Notes: generated by a model from the letters alone, not told the origin. Counted from the stretch's first letter, positions 35,784 to 52,900 are shown. The stretch: 64,000 bases of DNA from Desulfobulbaceae bacterium (GCA_024637145.1 JAGXFQ010000040.1:37948-101947), one strand, 5' to 3'. A program made the numbers and translations.

Positions 35784-36266
35784 ATGAAAAAGACAATCTT
35801 CACAACGGTCCTCGCCCTCAGCATGACAGCAGCCGTTGCCATGGCCCAAGATAACATGGACATGGACATGGATATGGCGGATGGCCAGAATATGCAGCAG
35901 GGCCAGGGCATGATGTACGGCGGCATGGGTCAGGGTATGATGGGCGGCAGGGGCATGATGGGCGGCAAGGGCATGATGATGCAAGGCCGCCAGGGATGTA
36001 TGAATATGATGGAACCGGGCATGGGCCAGGGGATGATGAAGGGCGGTCGCATGATGACCAATATGTCTGCTGAAAAGCAGCAACAGTTCATGGATGAGAC
36101 CACGGAGACGCGCAAGAAAATGCATACCCTCCGTTTTGAATATATGGAGGCCAAGCGCAACCCCAAAACCACCCTCTCTGAACTGGCCGATATGGAGCAG
36201 AAGATGCTCGATATCCGTAAAGAGATGATGAAAAAAGCGGAGAAATATCAGGATAACAAGAAATAA
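35784..36266 (+). CDS. Periplasmic Met/Gly-rich protein (ZraP/Spy/CpxP-like)
   Basis: Signal peptide, GMMGG repeats, helical C-terminus; RBS AAGGAG. Confidence 0.8.
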   Translation: MKKTIFTTVLALSMTAAVAMAQDNMDMDMDMADGQNMQQGQGMMYGGMGQGMMGGRGMMGGKGMMMQGRQGCMNMMEPGMGQGMMKGGRMMTNMSAEKQQQFMDETTETRKKMHTLRFEYMEAKRNPKTTLSELADMEQKMLDIRKEMMKKAEKYQDNKK

Positions 36267-36542
36267 GGCAAGAGAGAGGAGGGAGATGGGTGCCGCCGGC
36301 CCCTTCTCTTTCTTCCCGTGGCAGTCAAGAGTATGGGGGAGGGCCTTTCCGGCAAGAGGGAAAGGCCCTCCCCTTTTTTTATGCACGCAGGCCAACCCTT
36401 GACCACCATGATCCCTCTCTTTGCCGCCACCAAGAACCGGGAGATTTTTTGTTTTTTTCGTGGCGTCGGGGGCGGGAAGGTTTATCTTAAGATACGGATT
36501 TTTAGCCGTAGAGACTTTAAGCCCCCAGATAAGGAGAAGCCC

Positions 36543-37439
36543 TTGATCGCCCTCACCCCCACCCAGCTCCGTCTTTTTTTCTTTGTCGCCATTCTGGTGC
36601 TGGTTGTCGGCTGGGAGCTGGTAGCCCCCAAACGAGCGCTCACCGTGGGAAAGGCGGGGCGCTGGTTCAATAACCTGGGCATTATCTTTCTGGGCTCTTT
36701 AGTGGTGCGGCTCCTCTTTCCCCTGGCGGCCTTGGGGGTGGCGGCGGCAGCCCGGGAGAGCGGCTGGGGCCTGTTTAGTCTCGTTGACCTGCCCTACTGG
36801 CTCAGCGTGCTGCTGGCCGTTCTCCTCCTTGATCTGGTCGTCTATCTGCAGCATGTGATGTTTCATACCCTGCCCATCCTCTGGCGCTTGCACATGGTAC
36901 ATCATGCTGATCTTGATATTGACGTGACCACTGGCCTGCGCTTTCATCCCCTGGAGATCATCATATCCATGTTCATCAAGATGGCAACCGTGGCCGCCCT
37001 TGGTCCGCCGCTCCTTGCCGTCTTGATCTTTGAGGTCGCCTTAAACGGCACGGCCATGTTCAACCACGGCAATATCCGTCTGCCGGCGGGGGTGGATCGT
37101 CTCCTGCGGCTGCTGGTGGTCACCCCTGATATGCACCGGGTCCATCACTCCGTGCTGATCCGCGAGACCAACAGTAATTTCGGCTTTAATTTCCCTTGGT
37201 GGGACCGGCTGTGCGGCACCTATCGCAGCCAGCCTGTTGCCGGCCACAAAGACATGGTTATCGGTCTCTCCCAATACCGCCACAAGGAGGAGGTGATCCT
37301 TTTCCGCCTGCTGCTCCTGCCCTTCATCGGCCGGCCGGGCCGCTACTCCATCAAATTCATAGGGGGCAATCCCCAACAGCCGGGCCAGGACAGGGGCATA
37401 AAAAAAGGAGCTGGAAATAAATCCAACTCCCTGAAATAA
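36543..37439 (+). CDS. Sterol desaturase/fatty-acid hydroxylase family protein
   Basis: TTG start after AAGGAG; His boxes HVMFH, HMVHH, RFHP, HRVHHS, NSNFG..WDRL.GTY. Confidence 0.9.
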   Translation: MIALTPTQLRLFFFVAILVLVVGWELVAPKRALTVGKAGRWFNNLGIIFLGSLVVRLLFPLAALGVAAAARESGWGLFSLVDLPYWLSVLLAVLLLDLVVYLQHVMFHTLPILWRLHMVHHADLDIDVTTGLRFHPLEIIISMFIKMATVAALGPPLLAVLIFEVALNGTAMFNHGNIRLPAGVDRLLRLLVVTPDMHRVHHSVLIRETNSNFGFNFPWWDRLCGTYRSQPVAGHKDMVIGLSQYRHKEEVILFRLLLLPFIGRPGRYSIKFIGGNPQQPGQDRGIKKGAGNKSNSLK

Positions 37440-37469
37440 CCATGGTGCGCCCGGCTGGATTCGAACCAG
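37432..37469. repeat. 38-bp direct repeat of the tRNA-Arg 3' end (island att site)
   Basis: TGAAATAACCATGGTGCGCCCGGCTGGATTCGAACCAG, identical to 51237-51274. Confidence 0.95.
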
Positions 37470-37617
37470 ATTTGACCATAACTCTCAAATCTGCCATAGG
37501 GGCCACACGCCCCTCTCCCCCGCTACAGGCATAGGCATTTTACCGCAATAACCACCCGTCTTAACAGAATAAACCCCTTGTACTACTTCCTGAGGTCAGA
37601 CATGAATAACTTAAAGG

Positions 37618-37929
37618 TCATGATAGGCAATAGATATAGGCAGGTTCCTGGAGATGGAGACTTTTCTTTAGCAGCGTCAACTTGGACCTGCAGTTCAGCG
37701 TGGATACCTTCCCTTCCGTGACAAGATGGGATATAAAGCGCTCAACGTCCTGTGCCCCAAGGGTATTCGGGTGTATCTTGCCGCCGAAATGATAAATGAA
37801 GTGCAGAATCCACTGGCAATAGGTCTGCTCAGTTCGATAGGCATAGTGACAATTCCGCAAGACCTCGCGGGTCTGGTCCATCAGTTTGAGCTCGGGATCA
37901 GGACGGAATTTCGGTTTATTTTCCACCAT
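37618..37929 (-). pseudogene. intI: Integron integrase, truncated after the N-terminal SAM-like domain
   Basis: KLMDQTREVLR..HYAYRTEQTYC.WI..FI..HP..LG..DVERFISHL..EGKVST; similarity stops near 37700 before the usual STQ.QAL.A; no catalytic domain; divergent from the cassettes. Confidence 0.88.
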
Positions 37930-38039
37930 AGCCCCTATAATAACGCAAGAAGTGGAAAAGATGCACACAATGGGTAATAAGTGGAAAAAAAAGAAGAATT
38001 TTCCACTTATTATGCTTTAAGATCACAATAAGCGGAAAA

Positions 38040-38098
38040 TCCGTCCACCTATAAGGGGTAATATAACGGACAAAATTTTACTTATTACACTGTTAGGC
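38040..38098 (+). other. attI-like site
   Basis: GTTAGGC at 38092-38098 between intI and the first cassette, exactly complementary to GCCTAAC at 38500. Confidence 0.7.
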
Positions 38099-38109
38099 GG
38101 CATAAAACT

Positions 38110-38490
38110 ATGAACCAAGATGAAGTAATCGAAATTGGAAAGCGTTATTTTGAGAGTCTTTTCCCTAGAAGCTGCCCAAATTGTCAACGGCAATTCCAAA
38201 CGCTTCGTGAGTATTTATCAGTTACTACCCGAACTGGATATGCTCATTCCTATGATGCTGAAGTTGGCGACTGGAAACCTGAGGACCCGATTGGGACGAT
38301 AATGTGTGCTAATTGCCCCTGCGGATCAACCCTCGCACTGACCACAGAACAAATGGTTTTTACCCAAAGTCTGGCATTGTTGGATTGGATTCGGCAAGAA
38401 ACACAAAGACGAGGTATAAGCCCATCAGAGTTATTGGAAAGGTTGCGAGATAAAGTGCGTCAGGTTGTTTTAGATAAATCAGATAAATGA
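38110..38490 (+). CDS. Cassette: hypothetical Cys-motif (putative Zn-binding) protein
   Basis: FPRSCPNC..CANCPCGSTL; bounded by GTTAGGC and GCCTAAC. Confidence 0.8.
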   Translation: MNQDEVIEIGKRYFESLFPRSCPNCQRQFQTLREYLSVTTRTGYAHSYDAEVGDWKPEDPIGTIMCANCPCGSTLALTTEQMVFTQSLALLDWIRQETQRRGISPSELLERLRDKVRQVVLDKSDK

Positions 38491-38499
38491 TATCCTATT

Positions 38500-38559
38500 G
38501 CCTAACAAGTTGTTGCAAAGGGGTGCGCTGACGAGCGCCTCTGAACATTGGCGTTGGGC
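38500..38559 (+). other. attC site (intact-looking, 60 bp)
   Basis: R'' GCCTAAC .. R' GTTGGGC with imperfect internal palindrome. Confidence 0.85.
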
Positions 38560-38608
38560 GCCTTAACATAGAGCGCGCAAGCTTGGCATGACTGTCGGAG
38601 ATGCTTTC

Positions 38609-38803
38609 ATGAGTCAGTTGAAACTGAGCAAGGCTTTTACCCTGATGGAATTAGGGCCTGTGGTCCTCGTGACAACCCATGATGGGAAGAAAGACAACAT
38701 CATGACTATCTCCTGGACCATGGTGATGGATTTCACACCGGTATTTGCTATCACCACGGGTGAATGGAATCACTCCTTCGCGGCGTTGCAAAGCAACGCT
38801 TGA
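38609..38803 (+). pseudogene. Cassette: truncated duplicate of the flavin reductase-like gene
   Basis: Near-identical to 42831 onward until ~38790, then unrelated short repeats. Confidence 0.9.
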
Positions 38804-38942
38804 GCAACGCTTGGGAGCACGCTTGGGGTCGGGCCACGCTAACTAACTGAAAATATTGGTGTTTATTGTAGTAAATAGGCCTTTTTTGGGGCTATATTGA
38901 TGTTTTTAATGCCAAAAACGTCAATATAGGGCCAGATAACTC

Positions 38943-38993
38943 ATGGCTAGAGCAAAAAGACATACTACCCCAGGACAGATATGGCATCTTACG
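38943..38993 (+). pseudogene. N-terminal remnant of a REP-associated (RAYT/Y1-like) transposase
   Basis: MARAKRHTTPGQIWHLT matches the MARxxRxxxPGxxxHxT start typical of this family; similarity then ends. Confidence 0.55.
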
Positions 38994-39050
38994 GTTGATG
39001 GCCGTATTCCACACTGCAATGTCACATTCCATGAAGGATTCAAAGCAAAT

Positions 39051-39142
39051 GGCCAACCAAACGCTTGACTTGAGTGGACGCGAAGAACTTCGGCGGCCTT
39101 ACGGGCAAGTTCCTTGGCGCGCCATTCAGCTCAACGTTATGC
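39051..39142 (+). other. attC site
   Basis: GGCCAAC-CAAACGCTTGA..GCCATTCAGCTCAAC-GTTATGC. Confidence 0.7.
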
Positions 39143-39282
39143 ATTGTGGAGCCTGCAAAATTTAAGTTACAAATCTCTGCCATTAACCCTAGCGCAGTTG
39201 ACCTTGAGGAAGCTGTTCTGTAATCTCTATACTGGGTAGTAACAGATCGACATTGACTCCAAGGATGAGGTGCTTTCGCCCC

Positions 39283-40221
39283 ATGGCTTTCGGTATCTAC
39301 GACAAAATTCCCGCTCCGGTGAGGCACTGGCTCAGCATCCTGGCTGCTGCGAGCAGGTATTGGCTGGCGAGCCAGGCCTTCATTTATGCCGCAGCGCTGG
39401 CGTTCTTTACCGTTTTCTCCATCGCGCCGATCCTGGTAGTGATTGTCACTCTGGTCGGGCTGGTTATTGGCGAGAGGGCTGTCCGGGGTGAACTCTTCGA
39501 GCAGCTCGAGGGGACTCTCGGTCCGGAAGCGGCAGGCGTGGTGCAGACAGCAGTGATCAATTCGCAGGTCGATCAGAGTGGCATCTGGCCGGCGTTGATA
39601 GGGATCGTCGCCACCATAGTCGGTGCCACCACGGTTTTCGCCCAGATGCAGCTGTCCCTGAATCAGATCTGGGACGTTGCGCCACGTCCTTCCAGAAGCA
39701 GCATGTGGGTCTTCGTCAAGAGGCGGGTGCTGTCGCTGACCATCATCCTGGCCATCGGGTTCACCCTGTTGGTCTCGTTAATATTGTCAGTGGCTTTGCG
39801 TGGCGTGATGGCGTTCGCGGAGGAATGGCTACCGGTTCCTGGTGGGACGATGGTGAGCATGGAGATATTCCTGTCGCTGCTCGTGGTCACGCTCCTGTTC
39901 GCGGCGATCTTCAAGATCCTGCCCGACGTGCTGCTGTCTTGGCGAGACGTCCTGCTCGGTGCGTTCATCACTGCATTGCTGTTCACGGTGGGCCGTTCCC
40001 TGATCTCCATCTATCTGGCCTATACTGCGACAGCATCGGCCTATGGCGCTGCCGGCTCTCTGGCGCTGCTCCTGCTCTGGGTGAACTATTCCTCCATGAT
40101 CCTCCTGTTCGGGGCTGCGTTTACGCGTGCGCACCTCGAAGGCAGAGGCATGCCCGTCTTGCCCAAGAGCACGGCGGTTCGTGTGCACCGAGAATTGATC
40201 GATGAAGTGCAGGAAAGCTGA
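39283..40221 (+). CDS. Cassette: YihY/virulence factor BrkB family membrane protein
   Basis: AAALAFFTVFSIAP..LNQIW..FKILPD..YGAAGSL..LLWVNYS. Confidence 0.93.
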   Translation: MAFGIYDKIPAPVRHWLSILAAASRYWLASQAFIYAAALAFFTVFSIAPILVVIVTLVGLVIGERAVRGELFEQLEGTLGPEAAGVVQTAVINSQVDQSGIWPALIGIVATIVGATTVFAQMQLSLNQIWDVAPRPSRSSMWVFVKRRVLSLTIILAIGFTLLVSLILSVALRGVMAFAEEWLPVPGGTMVSMEIFLSLLVVTLLFAAIFKILPDVLLSWRDVLLGAFITALLFTVGRSLISIYLAYTATASAYGAAGSLALLLLWVNYSSMILLFGAAFTRAHLEGRGMPVLPKSTAVRVHRELIDEVQES

Positions 40222-40306
40222 ACATGACGGAATGCCCGGACTGCGGCCTCAACTTCGGCTGTTGTTTGGCTGCAGAGTAGATGCGCATGAATGAGGTAGC
40301 GTCGTC

Positions 40307-41313
40307 ATGAGAGTACAGAATCTCAAAACATGGGTCCGCGTTCGTTCCAGTTTCTGGTTTATCCCGGCAGTCATGGCCAGTGGGGCGATGGTGTTGGCCT
40401 TCGCAACCGTCGCCCTGGATGAACCGGTGACGAACTGGTTGACGCTTAACTGGGGTTGGACTTTCACCGGCGGAGCGGAGGGGGCGAGCTCCTTGCTGGG
40501 GGTCATCGCCGGATCCATCACGTGTCCGTTTCTATCCAGGCCAACGAGATCGTGGCGCGGGTCGGAGCGGAGTTGATCGAGGGAATAGAGCGCCTGTTTC
40601 CGGAAAACATCGAACGGGGAGCACCACAGATTCCGAGGGAGCCACCCGACGCAGCCTTCCTCGACATGTTCGGTCGAGAGGCGCGTCCGATTGGGTCTGC
40701 CGGGGACGGCTATCTACAGCTCGTCGATGGGGGGGGTGATTGATTTGGCCATGCAAGAGGATATCGTTATTCGACTGGAGCGACGACCCGGCCCTATGTC
40801 GTTGCCACCCGCCTGCTAATGCTGGTCTGGCCAGGAAACAAGGTTGCCGACCAGCTTGTGAAGCGCATCAATTCCGCGTTCGCTTTGGGTAACCCGCGAA
40901 CTCCCGGTCAGGACATTGAGTTCGCGGTCAACCAACTTGTCGAAATCGCGATACAAGCCCTCTCCACCGGGGTGAATGACCCATTCACGACGATGACGTG
41001 TGTAGACCACTTTGGGTCGGTACTGTGCCGCTTGGCGCAACGAGATATGCCGTCGCCTTATCGATATGACCATCAGGATCAGCTTCGTGTCATTACGCCT
41101 GTCTTTACGTTCCGGGACGTCACGGACGCGGCGCTCAACCAGATCCGGCAATATGGTCGTTCCAGCACTGCGGTGACCATCCGTCTGCTGGAAACGATTG
41201 CCGAAGTTGCGGGATCCCTGCATCGGCTGGAAGACGAGGACCGCCAAGAGGTGGAAAAACGCTTTCAATCCGCGAACCAATTGTTGAGCGAGTCACCAGA
41301 TTCTAACCTCTGA
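40307..41313 (+). pseudogene. DUF2254 family membrane protein with internal deletion and frameshifts
   Basis: Fragments RSSFWFIPA..IAGS / HHVSVSIQ..GYLQ / RTPGQDIEF..QLVEIA..ALSTGVNDPFT in different frames. Confidence 0.85.
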
Positions 41314-41349
41314 ATGCACGTACTCAGCTAGCATTCCGATGCCAAATTG

Positions 41350-41408
41350 GCCGAACCATTCACTGGTGCGGACGCAAGAAGCCGCGCCGCACAGTTCAAA
41401 CGTTATAT
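41350..41408 (+). other. attC site
   Basis: GCCGAAC-CATTCACTGGTGCGG..CCGCACAGTTCAAAC-GTTATAT. Confidence 0.8.
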
Positions 41409-41820
41409 GAAAACATTCAAACACATCGATATGGTAATCATTGCAAGAAATTTACTGTTAATGGCGTCATTCTGCATTCTATCAGGCTGTGCTATCGTTC
41501 AGCCAGGTGCTGGAGGTGGCTGGATCGGATTTACTGAATCTGGGCAAGCCTCATACTATGCCGATAAGTTTCAGAACAGAAAGACTGCCAGTGGTGAGAT
41601 TTATAGGCATGATTTAAAAACTGCCGCTCATAAAAAATTGCCATTCGGAGCAAATGTAAAGGTTACCAACCGCAGTAATGGCAAAAGTGTCATTGTAAAA
41701 ATCAATGATCGCGGTCCCTTTGTTAAAGGCCGTGTTATTGATCTTTCAAGGTCTGCCTTCAGCAATATAGGCAAGACGTCAACTGGCCTAATCGACGTGA
41801 AAATTGAAGTTGTGCGGTAG
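41407..41820 (+). CDS. Cassette: RlpA-like (DPBB) lytic transglycosylase lipoprotein
   Basis: Lipobox LSGC; G.ASYY..TASGE..TAAH..LPFG..INDRGPF..RVIDLS; start 41407 or 41431. Confidence 0.93.
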   Translation: MKTFKHIDMVIIARNLLLMASFCILSGCAIVQPGAGGGWIGFTESGQASYYADKFQNRKTASGEIYRHDLKTAAHKKLPFGANVKVTNRSNGKSVIVKINDRGPFVKGRVIDLSRSAFSNIGKTSTGLIDVKIEVVR

Positions 41821-41837
41821 CACAGAAGAGGAAGAAG

Positions 41838-41903
41838 GGGACGTCCATAAGATTATAAGTTTCTCGAACGAGGGGCAGATTTTTATGATTTTATGGGCGT
41901 CCC
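41838..41903. repeat. 66-bp palindromic REP-like element C, copy 1
   Basis: GGGACGTCCATAAGATTATAA..TTATGATTTTATGGGCGTCCC. Confidence 0.9.
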
Positions 41904-42101
41904 GATTGCCCCCAGACAGAGCAGAAAAGCCGGGACACAGGCAAGCAAGTGGTGCAAAAAAATCCGTCCCCTCACCGCTGAACTATGCTAAACGGGTTTT
42001 TCTACAGACTCGTTAGTCCTCAAAAAGATAAAATTGCAAATTGCTACGTTATGAATTAATTTATAGTCACAATAGATTCATAGGTAACGGAGGGCAATAA
42101 A

Positions 42102-42320
42102 ATGGCAACAGCAGTAAGAATTTCGGAAAATCTCCTGACTGACGCAAGAAAATACAGCAAAGTAGAGCACAGGTCTATAACTGGGCAAATTGAACACTGG
42201 GCACGTATTGGAAAATGCGTAGAAGAAAACCCAGACTTAACCTATGACCTCATCAAAGAAATGCTCATTGGAATCCAAGAGTTAGATCAAGGTGAAAAAA
42301 CTGAATTCACTTTTGGGTAG
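42102..42320 (+). CDS. Cassette: ParD-like antitoxin
   Basis: MATAVRIS..A...S.VEHRSITGQIEHWARIGK..EENPDL. Confidence 0.9.
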   Translation: MATAVRISENLLTDARKYSKVEHRSITGQIEHWARIGKCVEENPDLTYDLIKEMLIGIQELDQGEKTEFTFG

Positions 42321-42325
42321 GCCCA

Positions 42326-42601
42326 ATGAAAATTTACCAATCGAGGTCATTCGCCCATAAAGTCAAAAAACTATCAAAACCAGAAAAAACTACCTTAGAT
42401 AAGGAAATTAAGAAAATCCTCAGTGATCCTGAAATTGGTACTGAGAAGAAAGGAGATCTGCGAGGCATTTTTGTCCACAAATTTAAAATTAAATCAAAAC
42501 AACATCTCCTGTCATACAGATTTAGCGAATCATCACTGGAACTAATCATGCTTGGATTGCATGAAAATTACTACCGCGACCTAAAAAAGCACCTAAAATA
42601 A
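42326..42601 (+). CDS. Cassette: RelE/ParE family toxin
   Basis: P.IG.EKKGDL.G.FVHKFK..LG.HENYYRDLK; basic; 5 bp after the antitoxin. Confidence 0.9.
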   Translation: MKIYQSRSFAHKVKKLSKPEKTTLDKEIKKILSDPEIGTEKKGDLRGIFVHKFKIKSKQHLLSYRFSESSLELIMLGLHENYYRDLKKHLK

Positions 42602-42666
42602 GGCTAATAACTCGCTACCTTTAGGTGGCATATGTATCGTTGACCGATTGAGTTGGTGGGAAGATA

Positions 42667-42732
42667 GGGACGTCCATAAGATTATAAGTTTCTCGAGCTA
42701 AGGGCAGATTTTTATGATTTTATGGACGTCCC
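42667..42732. repeat. 66-bp palindromic element C, copy 2
   Basis: Near-identical to 41838-41903; lies inside an attC-like region. Confidence 0.9.
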
Positions 42733-42830
42733 GACTGGCCCTAACTGCACTGAAGCGCGCCTCTGAACATTGGCGTTGGGCGCCTTAACATAGAGCGCGC
42801 AAGCTTGGCATGACTATCGGAGATGCTCTC

Positions 42831-43373
42831 ATGAGTCAGTTGAAACTGAGCAAGGCTTTTACCCTGATGGAATCAGGGCCTGTGGTCCTCGTGACAACCC
42901 ATGATGGGAAGAAAGATAACATCATGACTATCTCCTGGACCATGGTGATGGATTTCACGCCGGTATTTGCTATCACCACCGGTGAATGGAATCACTCCTT
43001 CGCGGCGTTGCGAAAGAATCGGGAGTGCGTCATTGCAATTCCCACCGTCGACCTATTGGATAAGGTGGTTGGCATAGGGACGTGCTCGGGCGCAGACACA
43101 GACAAGTTTGCCAAGTTCAAGCTCACACCGGTGCCGGCTAAACTCGTCAGGCCGCCCTTGATCAAGGAGTGCCTCGCCAACATTGAGTGCAAGGTCATCG
43201 ACATCGTTAAAAAGCACAACATTGTTGTGTTAGAGGCGGTTGCCGCCTACATCGATACCGCCCGCAAGGAGAAGCGCACGGTTCACGCGGTTGGTGACGG
43301 AACGTTCATCGTCGACGGGCGCAAGATTGACCGGAAGAAGATGATGGCCTCCAAGCTCCCCTCAGGCGTTTAG
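42831..43373 (+). CDS. Cassette: flavin reductase-like (flavoredoxin) protein
   Basis: GPVVLVTT..NIMTISW..ECVIAIP..G.CSG..DKF..PLIKEC.ANIECKV. Confidence 0.92.
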   Translation: MSQLKLSKAFTLMESGPVVLVTTHDGKKDNIMTISWTMVMDFTPVFAITTGEWNHSFAALRKNRECVIAIPTVDLLDKVVGIGTCSGADTDKFAKFKLTPVPAKLVRPPLIKECLANIECKVIDIVKKHNIVVLEAVAAYIDTARKEKRTVHAVGDGTFIVDGRKIDRKKMMASKLPSGV

Positions 43374-43429
43374 CGTTCATTGGCCAGCCAGGAGGAAGTC
43401 CTGGGAGCAAAAATGAAAAGCACGGCGGC

Positions 43430-43491
43430 GCTCAACAATTCGTTCAAGAGGCAGGGCCTGTCTGGTCTGCCGCCTAACTCAAACATTTGGT
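43430..43491 (+). other. attC site with mutated R' box
   Basis: GCTCAAC-AATTCGTTCAAG..GCCTAACTCAAAC-ATTTGGT (GTT lost). Confidence 0.7.
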
Positions 43492-43513
43492 CTGGGAATC
43501 TGGAGTGTCGATT

Positions 43514-44656
43514 GTGTTTTTGCGGTTTTCGCTCAAGCTAATTTTGTTGATTCTGGCGTGTGTCTCTGCTGGTGTGATTTGGCAGCAGGCACAGTTGTCT
43601 GTCTTGGCGCTCAGCCACATTGACCCGGTTCCTGAAGTCGAGGCTTTGGTTGCCGCGGAACGATACGCTGAGGCAGCCTATTACCTCGATTTTTTCCTGG
43701 AATACGACTATGTCCGTGACGATCCACAGGCTCAGGCGCTGCACGCCGAGATCGAAAGGGTGCGCAACTGTCTCTCCTACCAGACAAGCAAGCTTGGCGA
43801 AGGATTGCTTGTGGGTACCAGCGATGAAGGTATCGGCAAGACGGCGGGCCTGATCACGGATTTTTTTGTGGTCGGCGACATTCGTGATCTCGCCGCGCAG
43901 GGGACCAACTGGGCTCAGGGTGAAGATGTCGACGAGGTGGTTGCCGCTCTCGCCGGCATCGGCCTTGTAGCTACGGCTGCTCAGATCGCCAGCGGAGCAG
44001 CAACTGTTGGCACGGCGGGAGCCGCTGCTCCGGCCGTGGCGGGCAGCACGGCTGTCAAAGGCGGGGTCAGCATTCTGAAAGCCGCTCGCAAGCTCGGTAA
44101 GCTGCCGCCCTGGCTGGGTAAGACACTGATTAAAAACGCCAAAACCGTGCAGAAGACGAAGAAACTGGATTCTGTTACCGATCTGTTCAGCGATGTCTAC
44201 CGCCTTGCCCGCACGCCAGGTGGCTTGAATCTCTTGAGCAAGACTAGCGATGCCGCATCGTTAAGACGCATGGCGGCTGCTGCCGAGACATTTGGCGATT
44301 CGACGGCCACGCTCTACCGGATCGGTGGTCAGACGTTCCTGAAAACGGCCGGCCGGGCGAGTCAGCTTGGAACCGATAGCATCAAGCTAGCCTCGACCTA
44401 TGGCCCTAAAGGTCTGCGGGTGCTGGACAAGATCGGACCGACACGATTCATTAAATATTCCGCCCGGGCAGCGAAGATCGCCTACAAAGGTGATTTGTTC
44501 GACCTGATTGCTCGCTTCCTTGCCATGTTGCCGAGATGGATCCTTTATCTGCTGTTCAGTCTGGGTATCGTAGTCTGGATTCCGTGGCGATGGCTCAGGC
44601 GGCTTGGTCAGTCGGTCATTTCCGGTAAAAGAGTTATAGTCAAATCTGGTGTTTGA
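43514..44656 (+). CDS. Cassette: hypothetical membrane protein
   Basis: ~380 aa, N- and C-terminal TMs, Gly/Ala-rich central hydrophobic stretch; GTG start after GGAG (uncertain). Confidence 0.8.
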   Translation: MFLRFSLKLILLILACVSAGVIWQQAQLSVLALSHIDPVPEVEALVAAERYAEAAYYLDFFLEYDYVRDDPQAQALHAEIERVRNCLSYQTSKLGEGLLVGTSDEGIGKTAGLITDFFVVGDIRDLAAQGTNWAQGEDVDEVVAALAGIGLVATAAQIASGAATVGTAGAAAPAVAGSTAVKGGVSILKAARKLGKLPPWLGKTLIKNAKTVQKTKKLDSVTDLFSDVYRLARTPGGLNLLSKTSDAASLRRMAAAAETFGDSTATLYRIGGQTFLKTAGRASQLGTDSIKLASTYGPKGLRVLDKIGPTRFIKYSARAAKIAYKGDLFDLIARFLAMLPRWILYLLFSLGIVVWIPWRWLRRLGQSVISGKRVIVKSGV

Positions 44657-44841
44657 GAAAATTGTCATCAAATAATAACCCTGTTCAGTTCGCCTTCTTC
44701 TTGTAAAGGGTCTATCCGTAAGAAGACCGAACCCTGAGTGCCAAGAAAGGGTGTGGCAGAGAGGCACGGCCGCCCAACGGTGCCCAGCGGACTGCTGGCG
44801 CCGAAAAAAGTTGCGGCATAATTCATAATCAGGAGCTTAAA

Positions 44842-45093
44842 ATGGCTCAGAGTGTAATCGTGAAAAAAGAAGAAAAGATTGCGTCAGTGATATCAACATT
44901 GCTTCCAGATTTTACGGAAGCTCAGTTCATTGAGGCGTTCATTGAAAAATATCCAAAAGAATGGGATAGAGTCCAGAAAATTTATAGGGAACATGAGCTT
45001 CGAACAAAACCAGGGAAGAGCCACCCCATGCCAGAGCCAAGAAAATATTTAATCACTGCATTAACAATATGGAAAAAGAAAAATACCAAATAG
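44842..45093 (+). CDS. Cassette: small hypothetical protein
   Basis: 83 aa, RBS AGGAG, AT-rich, followed by attC. Confidence 0.8.
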   Translation: MAQSVIVKKEEKIASVISTLLPDFTEAQFIEAFIEKYPKEWDRVQKIYREHELRTKPGKSHPMPEPRKYLITALTIWKKKNTK

Positions 45094-45107
45094 GAACAAA
45101 AGTAATC

Positions 45108-45210
45108 GCCCAACCAAATAATGCACCGGACGGGGAGACACTTATGATTCTCGATAAGCTCAGTGGTACTCCCAAGTCTCTGCGCCGCCGGTGATGATCA
45201 TCTGTTAGCC
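45108..45210 (+). other. attC site
   Basis: GCCCAAC-CAAATAATGCACCGG..CCGGTGATGATCATCT-GTTAGCC. Confidence 0.8.
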
Positions 45211-45223
45211 ATATGAAACCGAA

Positions 45224-45850
45224 ATGAATATAGAAAATGGCATCATATCAAATTGGAATGAAGAAAAGGGTTTTGGTTTCATAACCCCAACCTCTGGCGG
45301 CAAATCATTATTTTTCCATATAAATGGCTATAGCCATCGTCATAAACGTCCCTTTAAAAATTTAGAAGTACAATACTTTACGTCAACCGATCCAAAAGGG
45401 CGGATATGTGCCATTGATGTTGCTCCTTTAAAAGGACATAAAAATAATGGGAAGGAAATAAGGCAAAAGTTCCGCTCTTTACTTCTGTTCAGTATCTGTT
45501 CAGTCGTTCTTTATTACCTGTTTGAATTAAAACTCATCCCGCTTGAGCTCGTTTTTCTATATGCAATCATGAGTGTCTTGGCATTTATAATGTACGCAAA
45601 AGACAAAAAAGCGGCGGAGTGGGGCAATTGGCGAACTCCTGAAAGTACTTTACATACATTATCACTGTTAGGTGGTTGGCCAGGTGCCAAAATTGCACAA
45701 AGTTTTTTAAGGCACAAATCCTCAAAATTATCATTCCGAGTCACATATTGGGCAACAGTAGTAGCTAATTGTTGCGCATTATCTTGGTTGATAACCCAAA
45801 AAGGCAGTAAATGGCTTCAAAGCATATTGGTAAATATAAATTTTGGTTAA
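45224..45850 (+). CDS. Cassette: cold-shock domain + DUF1294 membrane protein
   Basis: WNEEKGFGFI..FFHI; YAKDK.AA..WRTPE.TLH..GGWPGA..RHK. Confidence 0.93.
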   Translation: MNIENGIISNWNEEKGFGFITPTSGGKSLFFHINGYSHRHKRPFKNLEVQYFTSTDPKGRICAIDVAPLKGHKNNGKEIRQKFRSLLLFSICSVVLYYLFELKLIPLELVFLYAIMSVLAFIMYAKDKKAAEWGNWRTPESTLHTLSLLGGWPGAKIAQSFLRHKSSKLSFRVTYWATVVANCCALSWLITQKGSKWLQSILVNINFG

Positions 45851-45860
45851 TGAAAAAAAG

Positions 45861-45980
45861 GCATAACAATTCGCTGCCTTTAGGCGAACGAGCACGCTGG
45901 TTTTATCGGCTTCGGTCACCTAAATAAACTCGAATTTACTCAGCCTTGGCTAGGCGCGCGTCTTAGCTTTGCCGTAGGTG
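45861..45980 (+). other. attC site, degenerate R'
   Basis: GCATAAC-AATTCGCTG..TTAGCTTTGCC-GTAGGTG (one T short of GTTAGG). Confidence 0.6.
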
Positions 45981-45997
45981 CAGAGAGAAAATAAACT

Positions 45998-46783
45998 ATG
46001 ATCAATCACGCAGATATATTTTTATTTTTCCTGTTAAGCTTCTTCAAGTTTGTAGTGCCAGTCTTAATTCTTGGTGCCATAGTAAAATCTGCCACATTTA
46101 AAGGATTTATTGGCGAATTAATTGTTAAAATTTCAGCTAAGTTACTTCTCGCCAAAAACAAATATTCAATTTTTCACAATGTCACCCTGTCCACTGAAGA
46201 TGGCACAACCCAAATTGACCACATTGTAGTGTCCAGATACGGGGTATTTGTTATTGAAACTAAAAACATGAAAGGCTGGATTTTTGGCGCAGAACATCAA
46301 GAACAATGGACGCAAAAAATATTTAAACACACAACCAAATTTCAAAACCCCTTGCGCCAAAACTACAAACACACCAAGACACTTGCCGACCTCTTAAACA
46401 TTGATCTCTGTAAATTATTTTCTGTGGTGGTATTCGTCGGAGATACAACCTTTAAAACTCCTATGCCCCCCAACGTTACAGAGGGCGGCGGTTACATAAA
46501 GTTCATTAAAAGCAAAAAGGAAATAATCTTTAGCCAGCCCGAAGTAAATTCAATCATTGCAGCTATAAGAAGCGGGAAACTCAAAAACAATCTCAAGACC
46601 CACGTCAACCATATAAACCATGTGAGAAGCATAAAAGAGCAAAAGAGCGACACTAATATTCGCTCATGCCCAAAGTGTGGGAATGAAATGGTTTTGAGGA
46701 AGGCAACTAAAGGTAAAAATGCAGGAAACACCTTTTGGGGTTGCAGCCAATTCCCAAAATGTAGAACAATATTAAGCATCTAG
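45998..46783 (+). CDS. Cassette: NERD nuclease-related domain + topoisomerase-type C4 zinc finger
   Basis: TTQIDHIVVS..VIETKNM.GWIFG..FQNPLRQN; CPKCG.EMVLR..FWGCS.FPKCR. Confidence 0.93.
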   Translation: MINHADIFLFFLLSFFKFVVPVLILGAIVKSATFKGFIGELIVKISAKLLLAKNKYSIFHNVTLSTEDGTTQIDHIVVSRYGVFVIETKNMKGWIFGAEHQEQWTQKIFKHTTKFQNPLRQNYKHTKTLADLLNIDLCKLFSVVVFVGDTTFKTPMPPNVTEGGGYIKFIKSKKEIIFSQPEVNSIIAAIRSGKLKNNLKTHVNHINHVRSIKEQKSDTNIRSCPKCGNEMVLRKATKGKNAGNTFWGCSQFPKCRTILSI

Positions 46784-46952
46784 TACGCCGTAAAACTTAA
46801 ATGTACGTGTAGAATTTTGTTATTGCATACGAACCACAAAGACACGAAGGCACAAAGAAAAACATAAAAACAAGAAGCACTTCGTGCCTTTGTGCCTTTG
46901 TGGTTAAAGGCATATTTGCATAAATATACAAAACTTTAAGTGATACACTGCA
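46784..46952. mobile_element. MITE family A, copy 2 (169 bp), inserted in the R'' box of an attC
   Basis: CTAG at 46780-83 and 46953-56; lacks the 27-bp inner insert of the other copies. Confidence 0.85.
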
Positions 46953-47132
46953 CTAGCAATTAGCTACCTTTAGGCGGCAGATGTATCGCTGACCGAGTGA
47001 GCTGGCAACTCAAAGCAGATCTTGTCTACCAGAAGGATCTGTAGTTCGGCGCTTAATTGGAACCGATGGGAGAGAATCTGCAGCATGGAACGGCACTCGC
47101 TACCCCCGATGAGGTTCATTTCATCAGACAAA

Positions 47133-48023
47133 ATGGTGAGTCACAGTACGGCCTTCGTGGCACTGGCAGCGTTATGCTGGGGGCTGTCAGGCGGGATCGG
47201 CGGGATGCTCATGGCCAAGGGCTGGGACTCGCTCGTGGTGTCGTTCTGCCGGGGCGCCATCGGGCTGTTGTTTGTTCTCGTCTGGCTTGCGTTGCGTCCG
47301 CGCGGCAGCGGACTGGCCAGTCGCCGATTATGGTTCTGGTCGGTGATTGCCGGTCTCGGCGTAGCCGGCAACTTCGCTTTTTATTTCGTGAGCATCGCGG
47401 CGGGCAGTGTTGCGGTTGCGGCGACGCTGATGTATTGCGCCCCGGTGTTCGTCTATCTGGTGTCCTTCACACTCAAGCTCGAAAGACCCACTCTGCTGAA
47501 GTGGGCAGCGATTGCGATGGTAATGTTTGGCATTGTGCTGCTTACCCGTATTTACGAGATTGGGGCGGGCGGCATCACGCCGATGGGCGCCGGTGCCGGA
47601 CTGCTTGCCGGGCTCTCCTATGCGGTATTCATTTTCGGCTTTAAGTATGCGGCACCGCACGGCAGCCCGCAGGCGATTCTCGTGATAGCGTTCGCGTCCC
47701 TTGTCACCATACTTATCTGGCTGGTCGATGTCGACCAGGCCGTGGCAGTGCTGAGCACGCCGAGTTGGCCGCTGTTCGCCGTACTGGGGGTGTTTGGCGC
47801 TGGATTGTCGTTCATTCTCTATATTGTCGGCCTGAACCATACCGCGCCGGCCGTGGCCTCAATTGTGGCAATGGTCGAGCCGGTCACCGCGTCACTCTTC
47901 GGCGTCGTGGTTTTAGATGAAAGTTTGGTCGGTCTACAGATCTTCGGCATGGGACTGATTTTGGTCACAGTTACTGCGCTGAGCGTATATTCGAGCGCTC
48001 AAAATAAAGCACTTGCTGAGTAG
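47133..48023 (+). CDS. Cassette: EamA/DMT transporter
   Basis: AALCWG, Y.APVFV, VAMVEPV; about 10 TMs; start uncertain. Confidence 0.9.
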   Translation: MVSHSTAFVALAALCWGLSGGIGGMLMAKGWDSLVVSFCRGAIGLLFVLVWLALRPRGSGLASRRLWFWSVIAGLGVAGNFAFYFVSIAAGSVAVAATLMYCAPVFVYLVSFTLKLERPTLLKWAAIAMVMFGIVLLTRIYEIGAGGITPMGAGAGLLAGLSYAVFIFGFKYAAPHGSPQAILVIAFASLVTILIWLVDVDQAVAVLSTPSWPLFAVLGVFGAGLSFILYIVGLNHTAPAVASIVAMVEPVTASLFGVVVLDESLVGLQIFGMGLILVTVTALSVYSSAQNKALAE

Positions 48024-48040
48024 CGCCGGGGTAGAAGATG

Positions 48041-48106
48041 GGGACGCCCATAAGATTATAAGTTTCTCGAACTAAGGGCAGATTTTTATGATTTTATGGA
48101 CGTCCC
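48041..48106. repeat. 66-bp palindromic element C, copy 3
   Basis: Near-identical to the other copies; sits where the attC left arm is expected. Confidence 0.9.
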
Positions 48107-48167
48107 GATTGCCTCCTTTAACAACGCGCGTCACTCGGTTGGCGTTAGGCAACAAAGAGAGGAAAGC

Positions 48168-48638
48168 ATGGAGCCAATTCAAGAACCAATTACCGGTAAC
48201 GAAGACCAAGGTGGACTGACATCGCCCTATCAAGCGCTTGTTCAGTTTTATTGCGCGTTCAACCGCGGCGATCTCTCGATGATGGAGGCGAACTGGACAA
48301 ATACAGATGATATTGCAATGGATAATCCGCTTGGAGGAATAAAGCGAGGGTGGCAAGAGATACGGCCAGTATACGAGCGCATTTTTAACGGCCCGGCTGA
48401 GGTATATGTCGAGTACTATGATTACACAGTTCACGAAACGGCAGACATGTTTTATGCGGTGGGAAGAGAGCGCGGCTATTTCCGCCTTGAAGGCGATGAA
48501 GTGAAATTGGCAGTCCGTACTTCTCGCGTTTTTCAGAAGGTGTCTGGCAAATGGCGGCAGGTACACCATCATGGATCAATTGACGAGCCAAAGCTATTGG
48601 CAAGGTATCAGTCTGCGGTCCTTGGCAAGCGGGTATAG
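48168..48638 (+). CDS. Cassette: SnoaL/NTF2-like protein
   Basis: FY.AFN.GD..NW..GW.EI..WRQVHHHGS; bounded by GTTAGGCAAC (48144) and GTTGCCTAAC. Confidence 0.88.
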   Translation: MEPIQEPITGNEDQGGLTSPYQALVQFYCAFNRGDLSMMEANWTNTDDIAMDNPLGGIKRGWQEIRPVYERIFNGPAEVYVEYYDYTVHETADMFYAVGRERGYFRLEGDEVKLAVRTSRVFQKVSGKWRQVHHHGSIDEPKLLARYQSAVLGKRV

Positions 48639-48640
48639 TT

Positions 48641-48706
48641 GCCTAACGCCGCGCTGGAGAGAGACGCCGCAAAAAGCACGGCGCCCATCAGCTTGAGACG
48701 TTAACG
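48641..48706 (+). other. attC site
   Basis: GCCTAAC-GCCGCGCTGGAG..CCATCAGCTTGAGAC-GTTAACG. Confidence 0.85.
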
Positions 48707-48732
48707 TCTCAGGAAAGGCATTCGTTGAGATT

Positions 48733-49644
48733 ATGGCAATAACGAAGATGAAAACGGTATCTCTCGTTCTGGGGAGTGGCGGCGCTCGAGGTTTAGCACA
48801 TATTGGCGTAATTCATTGGCTTGAAGAAAACGATTATGAAATACGATCAATAGTCGGTTGCTCAATCGGTGCAGTCATCGGGGGGATATATGCGGCCGGC
48901 AAACTGGATGTCTATGAGCAATGGGTGCGTTCCCTCACGAAAGTTGACATCGTCACTCTCCTGGATCTTTCCTGGGATAAGAGCGGACTGGTAAGGGGCG
49001 ACAAACTCATTAACACCCTTATCAAGCTGGTGGGAGCGCAATTAATCGAAGATCTTCCCTTTGCCTATACGGCTGTTGCGACCGATATAAAAGGCCAGAA
49101 GGAAATATGGCTAAAGTCGGGTAGTCTCTTTGAGGCCATGCGAGCGTCTTTCGCAATACCGCTTCTCTTTACCCCCTTCAAGTACAAGGGGAGAGATCTT
49201 GTGGATGGAGGAGTTTTAAATCCTGTGCCTATTGCGCCGACGTTTGGTGATGAAACCGACATTACTATTGCCGTAAATCTGGGGGGCCTCGCCCATAATC
49301 CGGAAGAGCGGAGCACCTTGAATGCTGCTCCAGCGTCTCCTGCCTCGCCGTTACGTGCAAGGATTAATCGCTTCATAAATCAACACCAACAATCCGTGAC
49401 CAGCAGGGGCAGTGGAGATTGGGGGGCGTACGATATCGCCATTCAGGCGTTTGAGACTATGCAGAGTACCATCGCGCGCCAAAAGCTTGCCGCTTACCCG
49501 CCGGACATAGTCATAGAAATTGCCAGGAATGCCTGTCGTACATTAGAGTTTGATCGGGCATCCGAGATGATTGAATTGGGATATCGGCGGGCGAAAGAAT
49601 GCCTATCTAAAGCTAAGAAGCCGGGGCGTAATGATGCACTGTAA
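48733..49644 (+). CDS. Cassette: patatin-like phospholipase
   Basis: LGSGGARG.AHIG, GCSIG, DGG..NPVP. Confidence 0.95.
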   Translation: MAITKMKTVSLVLGSGGARGLAHIGVIHWLEENDYEIRSIVGCSIGAVIGGIYAAGKLDVYEQWVRSLTKVDIVTLLDLSWDKSGLVRGDKLINTLIKLVGAQLIEDLPFAYTAVATDIKGQKEIWLKSGSLFEAMRASFAIPLLFTPFKYKGRDLVDGGVLNPVPIAPTFGDETDITIAVNLGGLAHNPEERSTLNAAPASPASPLRARINRFINQHQQSVTSRGSGDWGAYDIAIQAFETMQSTIARQKLAAYPPDIVIEIARNACRTLEFDRASEMIELGYRRAKECLSKAKKPGRNDAL

Positions 49645-49726
49645 CGAGGCGCTCAACCGGACGACGGTTACGTCCTGCGATTGCCACAAGCGCCTCGGCC
49701 CGCCGTCGGTTAGCTTGCTGTTCGGC
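49639..49726 (+). other. attC site
   Basis: TAACGAGGCGCTCAACCGGACG..CGTCGGTTAGCTTGCT-GTTCGGC. Confidence 0.8.
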
Positions 49727-49766
49727 GGCAGAAAGGCTTCCGGGGGAAGCTAACGAGGGAAATCCG

Positions 49767-50600
49767 ATGAGTGACAAGGGCACGAACGAAAATTCTGACG
49801 CGAACTCCACGGATGCGGAGGAGCTGAAACGGGAGCGATACGAGCTGCTCCAGCGTTTGGAGGGCGGGCTGGAGACGCCGATGCTCGTTCTGGCGTTCGT
49901 GTGGCTGGTGCTATTGATAGTGGAGCTGATTCAGGGCGAGAGTCTGCTGTTCTATTTTCTCGGCACGACTATCTGGGTTATCTTCATTATCGATTTCGCT
50001 GTGAAGTTGGTCCTGGCCCCGGACAAGGTCGTTTACCTCAAGGGTCACTGGCTGACCGCCATTTCGCTGCTGCTCCCCGCGCTGCGGATCTTCCGCGTCT
50101 TCCGCGCGTTTCGGCTGCTCCGCCTGGCCAGGGCGGGGCGGGGGTTGCGGCTGGTCCGCGTTGTCAGTTCGCTGAACCGCGGGATGAAGGCCCTGGGCGC
50201 GAGTCTGAGCCGACGGGGCTTCGGGTATGTGATCGCCCTCACAGTGCTGGTCACGTTCGCCGGCGCGGCCGGGATGTACGCTTTCGAGAACGAGGCAGCC
50301 GGCGGCCCGAACAGCTACGGCGAGTCGCTGTGGTGGACCGCCATGATCATGACAACCATGGGCTCGGAGTACTGGCCGCAGACGCTGGAGGGGCGTGTAT
50401 TGTGCGTCTTTCTGGCCCTATACGCCTTCGGTGTTTTCGGCTACGTGACAGCGGCGCTCGCCACCTTCTTCGTCGGCCGCGACGCCGATAGTAGCGACGC
50501 CGAAGTGGCAGGGGCCAAACAACTGGCCGCGGTCCTGGATGAGGTGAGTGCCTTACGCGATGAGATCCGCGCCCTGTCGCGACAACCGCCGGAGTTGTGA
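49767..50600 (+). CDS. Cassette: voltage-gated-type ion channel (ion transporter)
   Basis: S4-like LRIFRVFRAFRLLRLAR; pore WW...MTTMGSEYWP.T.EGR (filter TTMGSE instead of TTVGYG). Confidence 0.9.
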   Translation: MSDKGTNENSDANSTDAEELKRERYELLQRLEGGLETPMLVLAFVWLVLLIVELIQGESLLFYFLGTTIWVIFIIDFAVKLVLAPDKVVYLKGHWLTAISLLLPALRIFRVFRAFRLLRLARAGRGLRLVRVVSSLNRGMKALGASLSRRGFGYVIALTVLVTFAGAAGMYAFENEAAGGPNSYGESLWWTAMIMTTMGSEYWPQTLEGRVLCVFLALYAFGVFGYVTAALATFFVGRDADSSDAEVAGAKQLAAVLDEVSALRDEIRALSRQPPEL

Positions 50601-50626
50601 AACGTCTTCCAGGAACATAAAGGCAC

Positions 50627-50724
50627 GCCGCACCAAACGCTCCAGCAGACCGGGGCCGCGTGACGGCTTTCGGTGGTTCATTGCCGCTCTGGTGGCCCCG
50701 GCTGCTGAGCGGGGACGGTTGGTC
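50627..50724 (+). other. attC site, degenerate R''
   Basis: GCCGCAC-CAAACGCTCCAGCAGACCGGGGCC..GGCCCCGGCTGCTGAGC..GTTGGTC. Confidence 0.8.
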
Positions 50725-50744
50725 TGAAGATGAACGAGAATCGC

Positions 50745-51239
50745 ATGAATCCTACAATCATAATCAGGAACGAGACGAAAGACGATATCAGCACCATCAC
50801 CGAGGTGACCGTCGAGGCATTCAAAACATTAGAGGTCAGCAACCAAACGGAACAATATCTCATCGAGGCATTACGTGCCGCTAACGCCCTGACTCTATCG
50901 CTGGTTGCAGAAGTCGGTGGCAACGTGGTCGGACATATCGCATTCTCTCCCGTGACCATCTTGGACGGCACTAGGCACTGGTATGGCCTCGGTCCCGTTT
51001 CGGTACTACCTGAGTACCAGCAGAAGGGTATTGGCAAAGCCTTAATTCAAGAAGGGCTATCAAGATTAAAAGATATAGGCGCCAAAGGCTGTCGTTTAGT
51101 AGGACATCCGCGATACTACAGAAAATTCGGCTTTGAGAATGTTGCCGGACTTACCCTCGAAGGGGTTCCTCAAGAATTTGGGCACAAGCCATATTTAGGT
51201 GAGAAAAAAAGAGAGGGGGAGACGGAGCTAACTGCTTGA
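50745..51239 (+). CDS. Cassette: GNAT N-acetyltransferase (YhbS-like), probably 3'-truncated at the island end
   Basis: VVGHIAFSPV..GLGPVSVLP.YQ.KGIG..LVGHP.YY.KFGF; family-like sequence stops at VPQEF (~51180); no attC follows. Confidence 0.85.
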   Translation: MNPTIIIRNETKDDISTITEVTVEAFKTLEVSNQTEQYLIEALRAANALTLSLVAEVGGNVVGHIAFSPVTILDGTRHWYGLGPVSVLPEYQQKGIGKALIQEGLSRLKDIGAKGCRLVGHPRYYRKFGFENVAGLTLEGVPQEFGHKPYLGEKKREGETELTA

Positions 51240-51247
51240 AATAACCA

Positions 51248-51324
51248 TGGTGCGCCCGGCTGGATTCGAACCAGCGACTCTCGGCTTCGAAGGCCGATGC
51301 TCTATCCAGCTGAGCTACGGGCGC
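51248..51324 (-). tRNA. tRNA-Arg (anticodon UCG)
   Basis: GCGCCCGTAGCTCAGCTGGATAGAGCATCGGCCTTCGAAGCCGAGAGTCGCTGGTTCGAATCCAGCCGGGCGCACCA; full cloverleaf, CCA encoded. Confidence 0.97.
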
Positions 51325-51403
51325 CTGGATGTCTTTAGAGTGTATAGAGTATTTGGCGGGAAGATGCAAAGAAAGAGGCGCTGCTCTTCTAGGTTTTTCT
51401 TTG

Positions 51404-52720: not shown

Positions 52721-52900
52721 GATAGTTGTTTCCAATTGCAGAATTTCGCTGAAAGACTTTCTTATGGTACACCAACAGATTGTTGCAGATTGCGGCGTCT
52801 TTGGCAATGGTTACAGGGGCTGGACAACAAAAAAAAGCCATGGGTCCTCCCTTGGCGGGATATGGCCCCATGGCTCTCAGAAAAGAAAGGGCAGCCCGGC

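Follow-up and report, generated by a model that had tools for sequence, protein, structure and literature searches.

A cluster of attC sites lacking integron-integrase (CALIN), as defined by Cury et al. 2016 (PMC4889954), is a class of array for which loss of the integron-integrase gene (intI) and rearrangements are among the listed origins, with intI pseudogenes found near 15 of 279 CALINs. A probable cluster of this kind is seen in the 64,000-nt stretch of Desulfobulbaceae bacterium DNA considered here (the window), where it is bounded by direct repeats of the 3' end of a tRNA-Arg gene. The locus is probably a fossil integrative island at the tRNA-Arg(TCG) 3' end, one that carried a chromosomal-type integron, of which a CALIN and an intI pseudogene now remain. 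Contig C12, to which the window belongs, comes from a metagenome-assembled genome (MAG) of 2.86 Mb, 41 contigs, and 86% completeness. I refer to this genome as G000 and to other members of its genus as G001 to G007, with G006 being the sister species.

In common with the CALINs of PMC4889954, there is a cassette array without a working intI and, beside it, a recognisable intI remnant. Unlike in those CALINs, direct repeats of a tRNA 3' end enclose the entire array here. What is left of intI here also is N-terminal, whereas the published search used the C-terminal IntI domain, and the attC sites here were assigned by eye, versus by a covariance model.

The repeats instead recall the islands which tyrosine integrases insert at tRNA genes. 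T-loop and anticodon-loop starts are recognised sublocations of the attachment (att) sites of tRNA-targeting integrases (10.1101/2020.11.02.365908), and a 52-nt tRNA-Leu repeat bounds an island of Alteromonas (PMC4119200). As with the islands of these two sources, there is a tRNA 3'-end repeat, intact tRNA and partial copy being at opposite ends, a foreign composition, and a hotspot with different cargo in relatives. Unlike with those islands, there is here no integrase, almost no arm DNA, no empty site that could be found, and an integron as the sole cargo.

A further likeness is to integrative mobilizable islands of the SGI1 type, these being site-specific islands with an accessory load that includes an integron (PMC8409611). 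SGI1 inserts at trmE and keeps its integrase and mobilisation genes (PMC8409611), whereas nothing mobile is left here. Integrons of neighbouring genera are relatives of the one here, which is a sedentary chromosomal integron. That of SGI1, by contrast, is a mobile class 1 integron.

Little is documented of how chromosomal integrons reach chromosomal sites or pass from one to another, and the same holds for the origin of integrase-less cassette clusters. A search of literature listings, supplements aside, found no published case of a tRNA-bounded island that contains a chromosomal-type integron and nothing else. The locus is a dated, two-species example of an integron which apparently arrived as tRNA-island cargo and lost both recombinases, with microhomology deletions, insertions of miniature inverted-repeat transposable elements (MITEs), and a cassette-splitting rearrangement as the modes of decay seen. 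It lends support to two of the published CALIN origins, i.e., intI loss and rearrangement, and reveals no new mechanism. It is, that is, a clear but fairly ordinary relic rather than a working mobile element.

The tRNA-Arg repeats and the island boundaries

An earlier note on this DNA had described 38-bp direct repeats of a tRNA 3' end enclosing about 13.8 kb. This holds exactly: the copies, at 37432-37469 and 51237-51274, are identical at 38/38 positions, have a start-to-start spacing of 13805, and are the only two copies of this 38-mer across the assembly. ARAGORN finds a single tRNA in the window, a tRNA-Arg(tcg) on the minus strand (51248-51324), which Rfam confirms at 73.5 bits and which, among three Rfam matches at E<=0.1 over 36000-53000, is the only one above the gathering score. 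The right repeat copy consists of the 3' 27 nt of this tRNA, i.e., the T-arm minus one base, the acceptor 3' strand, and CCA, along with 11 nt downstream. The repeat, that is, starts at the T-arm and extends past the CCA, which places it with the T-loop att sublocation of tRNA islands (10.1101/2020.11.02.365908).

The boundary features are as follows.

36318..37439, plus strand: fatty-acid hydroxylase family gene, the left chromosomal flank (PF04116, 5.5e-27); its stop is in the first bases of the left repeat
37405..37432, minus strand: terminator-like hairpin (11 pairs) and T-run, read as the native tRNA-Arg terminator
37432..37469: left 38-bp repeat, made up of 27 nt displaced from the tRNA-Arg 3' end and a further 11 nt; read as the distal att scar
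37470..37492: 23 bp unique to the locus, between repeat and integron end module, and common to G006
51177..51236: remaining tRNA-proximal island arm, ~60 bp (the G006 arm is longer, with three GGCACA repeats)
51237..51274: right 38-bp repeat, forming the functional tRNA 3' end
51248..51324, minus strand: intact tRNA-Arg, anticodon TCG (ARAGORN, Rfam)

The hairpin and T-run, running from 37432 to 37405, come directly after the partial tRNA copy, and the same search found no terminator-like site after the intact tRNA-Arg. They follow the partial copy alone, and such a layout is expected where an element entering the 3' end of a tRNA provides a new end and shifts the former one, terminator included. 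Almost nothing other than the array is present between the att sites, just as had been noticed earlier, with non-integron DNA inside of the repeats amounting to no more than 23 bp at the left (37470-37492) and about 60 bp at the right (51177-51236). The hydroxylase-gene flank is 92% identical in G006 and about 85% identical in both G003 and G004.

Transposon ends were considered for the same boundaries and rejected. Terminal inverted repeats of the island ends score 10 in G000, which was matched by 59/300 shuffles; those of G006 score 15, matched by 3/300 shuffles, with a gappy alignment.

The integron remnant

Inside of the left repeat is found what remains of an integron platform.

37493..37633, minus strand: integron end module (85% identity to C3:4475-4615, itself 150-290 bp past the stop of the C3 intI)
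37646..37705, minus strand: internal intI remnant, 60 bp (33/36 plus 20/20 identity to C3:3881-3936, inside of the C3 intI; estimated codons ~190-210)
37669..37929, minus strand: intI N-terminal remnant, ~82 homologous codons (tblastn range 37669-37923; ATG at 37929-37927 by reading)
37930..38098, plus strand: attI region ending in GTTAGGC (38092-38098); platform likeness (73%) to two relatives extends to 38097/38098 and no further

The minus-strand open reading frame (ORF) 37618-37968 matches PF13495 (5.5e-16) as well as, over model positions 2-64, integron-integrase models. With the intact IntI of the genus relative G003 as tblastn query, residues 7-91 align at 69% identity over 85 residues, good likeness reaches to about codon 82 (the earlier note's figure, about 77 codons, was close), and the catalytic domain is absent. 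The tblastn range of the N-terminal remnant overlaps the internal remnant (37646-37705), with the junction placed near 37706 by reading.

The integron had been described previously as cut at both ends. The left boundary instead is intact: as the end module survives, 23 bp from the left repeat, and as the internal intI piece matches C3, the indication is of two internal deletions rather than of a left integron end that was cut. The intI of the window thus carries two internal deletions, of the microhomology type given the short strings shared at the junctions (ATCC and ACCTG, by reading). The right end is a rearrangement breakpoint, as considered below. At the intI-proximal end of the array, GTTAGGC (38092-38098) fits GTTRRRY and is a candidate crossover box, and likeness to the intI-attI regions of relatives stops at the end of this GTTAGGC, as expected of an attI.

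What follows is an array of about 18 co-oriented cassettes, with all of the credible ORFs of 38110-51176 on the plus strand. These ORFs are short and functionally unrelated, and three unknowns are among them. Array GC is 0.38-0.62, versus 0.55-0.61 for the flanks. Several of the gaps between ORFs hold imperfect hairpins bounded by AAC...GTT, and sites fitting attC (R''=RYYYAAC, R'=GTTRRRY) were assigned by eye, with no covariance model behind them, at 38500-38559, 39056-39142, 45108-45210, 49651-49715, and 50632-50724. A strict attC scan gave two matches, both in the array and none outside, with one judged spurious. In single-stranded DNA folds of 12 candidate sites, 50632-50722 alone stands out (z -4.15), with the others at -1.9 to +0.6. 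Seven by-eye sites aligned badly in MAFFT, two of them with wrong start coordinates. A CALIN is indicated in that no functional intI is near the cluster and an intI remnant is recognisable, whereas a complete integron would have an intact IntI beside the array, and this is not found.

In G000 and G006 alike, the end module bounds integron DNA at a pair of unrelated loci. One is the tRNA-Arg scar; the other, the C3-type locus, is beside an oxidoreductase-like gene and has the same outer edge. A further, doubtful suggestion would be that the integron platform, together with an end module of about 150 bp, is a unit that moves between chromosomal sites, and that a small family of tRNA-Arg islands with related arm repeats carried integrons as main cargo. 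If this were so, then 'sedentary' integrons would have had a route by which to change address. As a structured RNA the end module is without support, with 1/47 predicted pairs covarying among 3 sequences.

Fragments of intI are found at four places in G000: in the window, at C3:3677-4321 (model positions 101-315), at C22:7018-7776 (63-315), and at C13:216621-216914 (15-112, with stops). The C22 fragment was considered as the missing half of the window intI and rejected, as it has 52% identity to the reference IntI versus 80% for the C3 type, and the window remnants are of the C3 type. The IntI cut-off was exceeded by 25 of 41 genomes, with G000 among them through a partial match only. Within the genus, a match passes this cut-off in each of G001-G004, that of G002 carrying one internal stop, and there is none in G005-G007. 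G000 has four intI pseudogenes and no intact intI, and decay of integrons looks to be lineage-wide.

As a separate observation, over C3:3400-4324 the IntI fragment (101-315) is fused 5' to an inverted attC, at the GTT of the attC R'' complement, and this intI fragment adjoins an IS91-like transposase with its own tyrosine recombinase. Possibly the C3 intI was broken by an attC-by-secondary-site event.

The sister species and other relatives

Relatives with the array but lacking the repeat had been named beforehand as grounds for giving up the island reading. G006, of the same genus and with about 92% flank identity, carries both of the junctions, each with its repeat. Its left repeat has decayed, with 3/38 mismatches to the G000 repeat versus one for its right repeat, and its own copies agree with each other at 34/38 positions. 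With both junctions present in G006 and the left repeat decayed, the insertion is old and inherited; the island arrangement predates the split of the two species. A pattern search found the doubled 38-mer in two of 40 family genomes, G000 and G006.

Flavin reductase, NERD, and EamA cassettes are common to the G000 and G006 arrays, and the rest differs. No intI piece is present at the G006 locus, where an attC comes directly after the end module. Between EamA, the last shared cassette, and the tRNA, G006 has hipBA on the other strand along with the longer arm and its three GGCACA repeats.

After the same tRNA other relatives have other DNA: AAA_21 and RloB in G005, along with a 48-nt tRNA repeat on another contig; a 1525-aa NTPase in G004; and putative, by reading, toxin-antitoxin-like small ORFs in G001. 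In G002 the tRNA-Arg(TCG) homologue beside the TPR gene (L021:2960-3030) looks degenerate, with no tRNA called by ARAGORN and the 3' acceptor end missing.

Insertion versus splicing

Under the island reading, a tyrosine-integrase element would have recombined in the tRNA T-arm and would have supplied a new tRNA 3' end (27 nt plus 11 nt), with the original 3' end and its terminator thereby pushed 13.8 kb away. Of the changes after insertion, most are shown. No island integrase is left; intI was destroyed, in G000 by two microhomology deletions, and is absent in G006; MITEs inserted; the contents of the cassette arrays diverged; and, in G000, a rearrangement with two breakpoints split a GNAT cassette and removed arm DNA, DNA which in G006 still carries hipBA.

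Several points weigh against this reading. An integrase is found at the locus in neither species, i.e., neither between the G000 repeats nor at the G006 junctions, so the integrase step is one that we purely infer, and an integrase could sit in the missing part of the 86%-complete assembly. The empty site, that is, the hydroxylase gene beside the tRNA, is seen in none of 40 relatives, and the insertion itself is for that reason also something we infer. It was the island layout at a tRNA 3' end and the integron content which stood from the earlier proposal of an integrative element reduced to att sites and cassettes. The attC calls were by eye, and the scans did not separate array from background: of the 12 plus-strand matches of a loose scan, 5 fall in the 13.3 kb of the array and 7 in the remaining 50.7 kb, and of its 12 on the minus strand the array has 7 and the rest 5, neither of which is discriminating. 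Lastly, a weaker likeness between the two tRNA-distal flanks goes on for about 30 nt past the exact repeat (a 70-nt family, 83%), with a T-run at equal distance, and this fits splicing-in as well.

As to the empty site, in the relatives checked the two flanks are on different contigs, and the hydroxylase homologues of G003, G004, and G010 are at contig ends or beside other DNA. A search of public genome contigs for an empty site or intact island returned contigs of one sister-type MAG only, and two metagenome searches for the same returned nothing.

The main rival, allele splicing, takes up this flank likeness. A related lineage's tRNA-Arg and downstream integron would have been recombined in rather than integrated site-specifically, with the conserved tRNA/TPR side as homologous anchor and the other end joined illegitimately inside of the resident tRNA, i.e., homology-facilitated illegitimate recombination which leaves the resident 3' end as a partial duplicate. 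This would account for the likeness, past the exact repeat, of the resident terminator region to the intact tRNA's flank on the element side, and all other junctions in the array show microhomology or template-switch signatures. The breakpoint, however, is exactly at the T-arm, where T-loop-type integrases act, whereas an illegitimate join could fall anywhere, and the anticodon-loop-type repeat of G005 at this same tRNA indicates that site-specific elements use the gene in this genus. Splicing is accordingly considered unlikely, if still to be kept in view, and insertion by an integrative element the probable origin.

Recombinases and excision

As the earlier note had it, no intact recombinase is present: PF00589 has no match anywhere in the window. 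The genome has five PF00589 matches, all on other contigs, these being XerC, XerD, two intI fragments, and one IS91-linked gene. XerD, on C9, scores 353.9 bits against a cut-off of 329.6, and XerC, on C23, 342.7 bits against 335.15. The genome-wide search that had been proposed, for an intact intI or a fitting island-type integrase, found none in the 86%-complete assembly.

It had been suggested as well that the element may be excisable in trans, which is not borne out, given no candidate integrase, the decayed G006 left repeat, and arm DNA that is nearly gone. The associated alternative is of a minimal, integrase-less cassette carrier which a helper integrase still excises and moves. Integrase-less 'hitcher' elements are a recognised class (PMC11389934), and the G000 repeats are still identical at 38/38 positions. 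The assembly, however, holds no candidate helper, decay of the G006 left repeat indicates no selection, the arms are down to about 23 bp and about 60 bp, and the locus is vertically inherited in two species. Also, no excision or empty-site joint, such as 37469-to-51275, is found among the 15 joints listed from contigs of four runs, 10 more being unlisted, which is weak evidence as contigs drop rare forms. A carrier still moved by a helper is therefore quite improbable. As the fossil island which the locus probably is, its remaining attC-cassette cluster is immobile and at most a store of accessory genes, and its loss can occur only by rare homologous recombination between the 38-bp repeats.

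Assembly of the junctions

With the genome being a 41-contig MAG, a chimeric contig joined at a short repeat could in principle mimic an island. Contigs of run X1 break inside of both repeats, and the same run contains a second strain whose GNAT junction is intact, though the breaks themselves are uninformative either way. Contigs from other studies nevertheless span both of the junctions, which argues against misassembly: one from X4 covers the left (37155-37577, 19 differences) and one from X3 the right (50680-51265, 27 differences, no gaps). The independently assembled sister genome has both junctions as well, and a 6-bp overlap could not cause the join that is seen between a MITE ('MITE2', below) and the GNAT piece. 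An assembly artefact is thus scarcely credible.

The split GNAT cassette and the right end

The GNAT cassette at the right end of the array is split, with its two pieces as follows.

50730..51176, plus strand: GNAT cassette 5' piece, 149 codons, broken after ...GVPQE (homology ends at ~51176)
38988..39142, plus strand: displaced GNAT 3' end, 26 codons plus stop (38988-39068), with attC 39056-39142

The last cassette gene had been thought to be cut about 55 bp from the repeat and to have no attC. GNAT homology does stop short of the right repeat, by 60-62 bp, with no attC following; the 3' end and attC, though, are not lost but instead are at 38988-39142. There, 38988-39065 encodes LTVDGRIPHCNVTFHEGFKANGQPNA, whose match in two homologues is the C-terminus, beginning 4 residues past the end of the 5' piece. 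An X1 contig of the co-occurring strain (depth ~128) joins 51175 to 38987 via 12 letters, with the frame kept. With the 3' end so located and this joint, the 12.2-kb block 38988-51176 is a circular permutation of the arrangement in which GNAT is intact. Rearrangement, and not truncation alone, thus shaped the array.

The left GNAT breakpoint abuts MITE2, which shares its final 6 nt (TCTTAC) with the GNAT 3' piece, and the neighbouring junction is a fold-back with a triplicated 12-mer. Routes considered for the split were tandem duplication plus two deletions, a linearised cassette circle captured at an arm break, and block transposition, none of which is singled out.

Run X1, from the probable source sample, thus apparently includes a second strain at similar depth (~127-128) which has the intact GNAT junction. 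The intI remnant of this second strain is without a 4-nt insertion (over 37599-37663).

Cassettes and repeats of the array

The cassettes are accessory genes of an uncultured, environmental sulfur-cycle bacterium. Features of the array other than those already given are as follows.

38110..38559, plus strand: cassette 1, 126-aa ORF of no family, with canonical attC 38500-38559 (GCCTAAC...GTTGGGC)
38524..38803, plus strand: truncated duplicate of the 5' part of the flavin-reductase cassette (96% to 42746-43014; PF01613)
38816..38992: MITE-like repeat, 'MITE2' (93% identical copy at C12:107933-108105; copies in relatives)
39253-40221, plus strand: BrkB/YihY-like cassette
~40281-41328, plus strand: DUF2254 pseudogene, in three ORF pieces and with ~270 bp missing
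41347-41820, plus strand: DPBB/RlpA-like cassette
42102-42601, plus strand: ParD-ParE cassette
42810-43373, plus strand: flavin reductase cassette
45224-45850, plus strand: CSD-DUF1294 cassette
45998-46783, plus strand: NERD and Zn ribbon cassette
46780-46956: MITE insertion, 177 bp (dozens of copies assembly-wide, many at contig ends)
47022-48023, plus strand: EamA cassette
within 42604..48023, plus strand: 389-aa and 83-aa unknowns
within 48020..50724, plus strand: SnoaL-like, patatin-like, and ion-channel cassettes, with attCs 49651-49715 and 50632-50724
41817-41913, 42646-42742, and 48020-48116: 97-nt hairpin repeat, a long imperfect hairpin (GGGACG...CGTCCC)

None of the resistance gene models was matched at its cut-off; GNAT, for example, scored 21 bits against AAC(6')-Ia, for which the cut-off is 265. 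The duplicate flavin-reductase piece ends in a fold-back with a triplicated 12-nt junction. A more complete paralogue of the DUF2254 pseudogene, 86-88% identical, is found at C2:101498-102886, near the end of contig C2, and is perhaps in another array.

G006 does not have the 177-bp MITE, and contigs of runs X3 and X5 run through its site without it, indicating a polymorphic, recent insertion. The end of MITE2 (38975-38992, CCAGGACAGATATGGCA) matches the G006 island arm (L018:4214-4232) at 17/18 nt, and GATATGG and ACAATG-TGGG motifs, which are related to this end, occur after the tRNA in G004 and G005. The 97-nt element, which is not a canonical attC, is almost confined to cassette arrays, with a further copy at C24:60056-60124. 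Many of the joints in contigs of other samples are at edges of this element (42657/8, 41912, 48036, and 48113), and possibly it is a unit of arrays that is mobile or prone to recombination.

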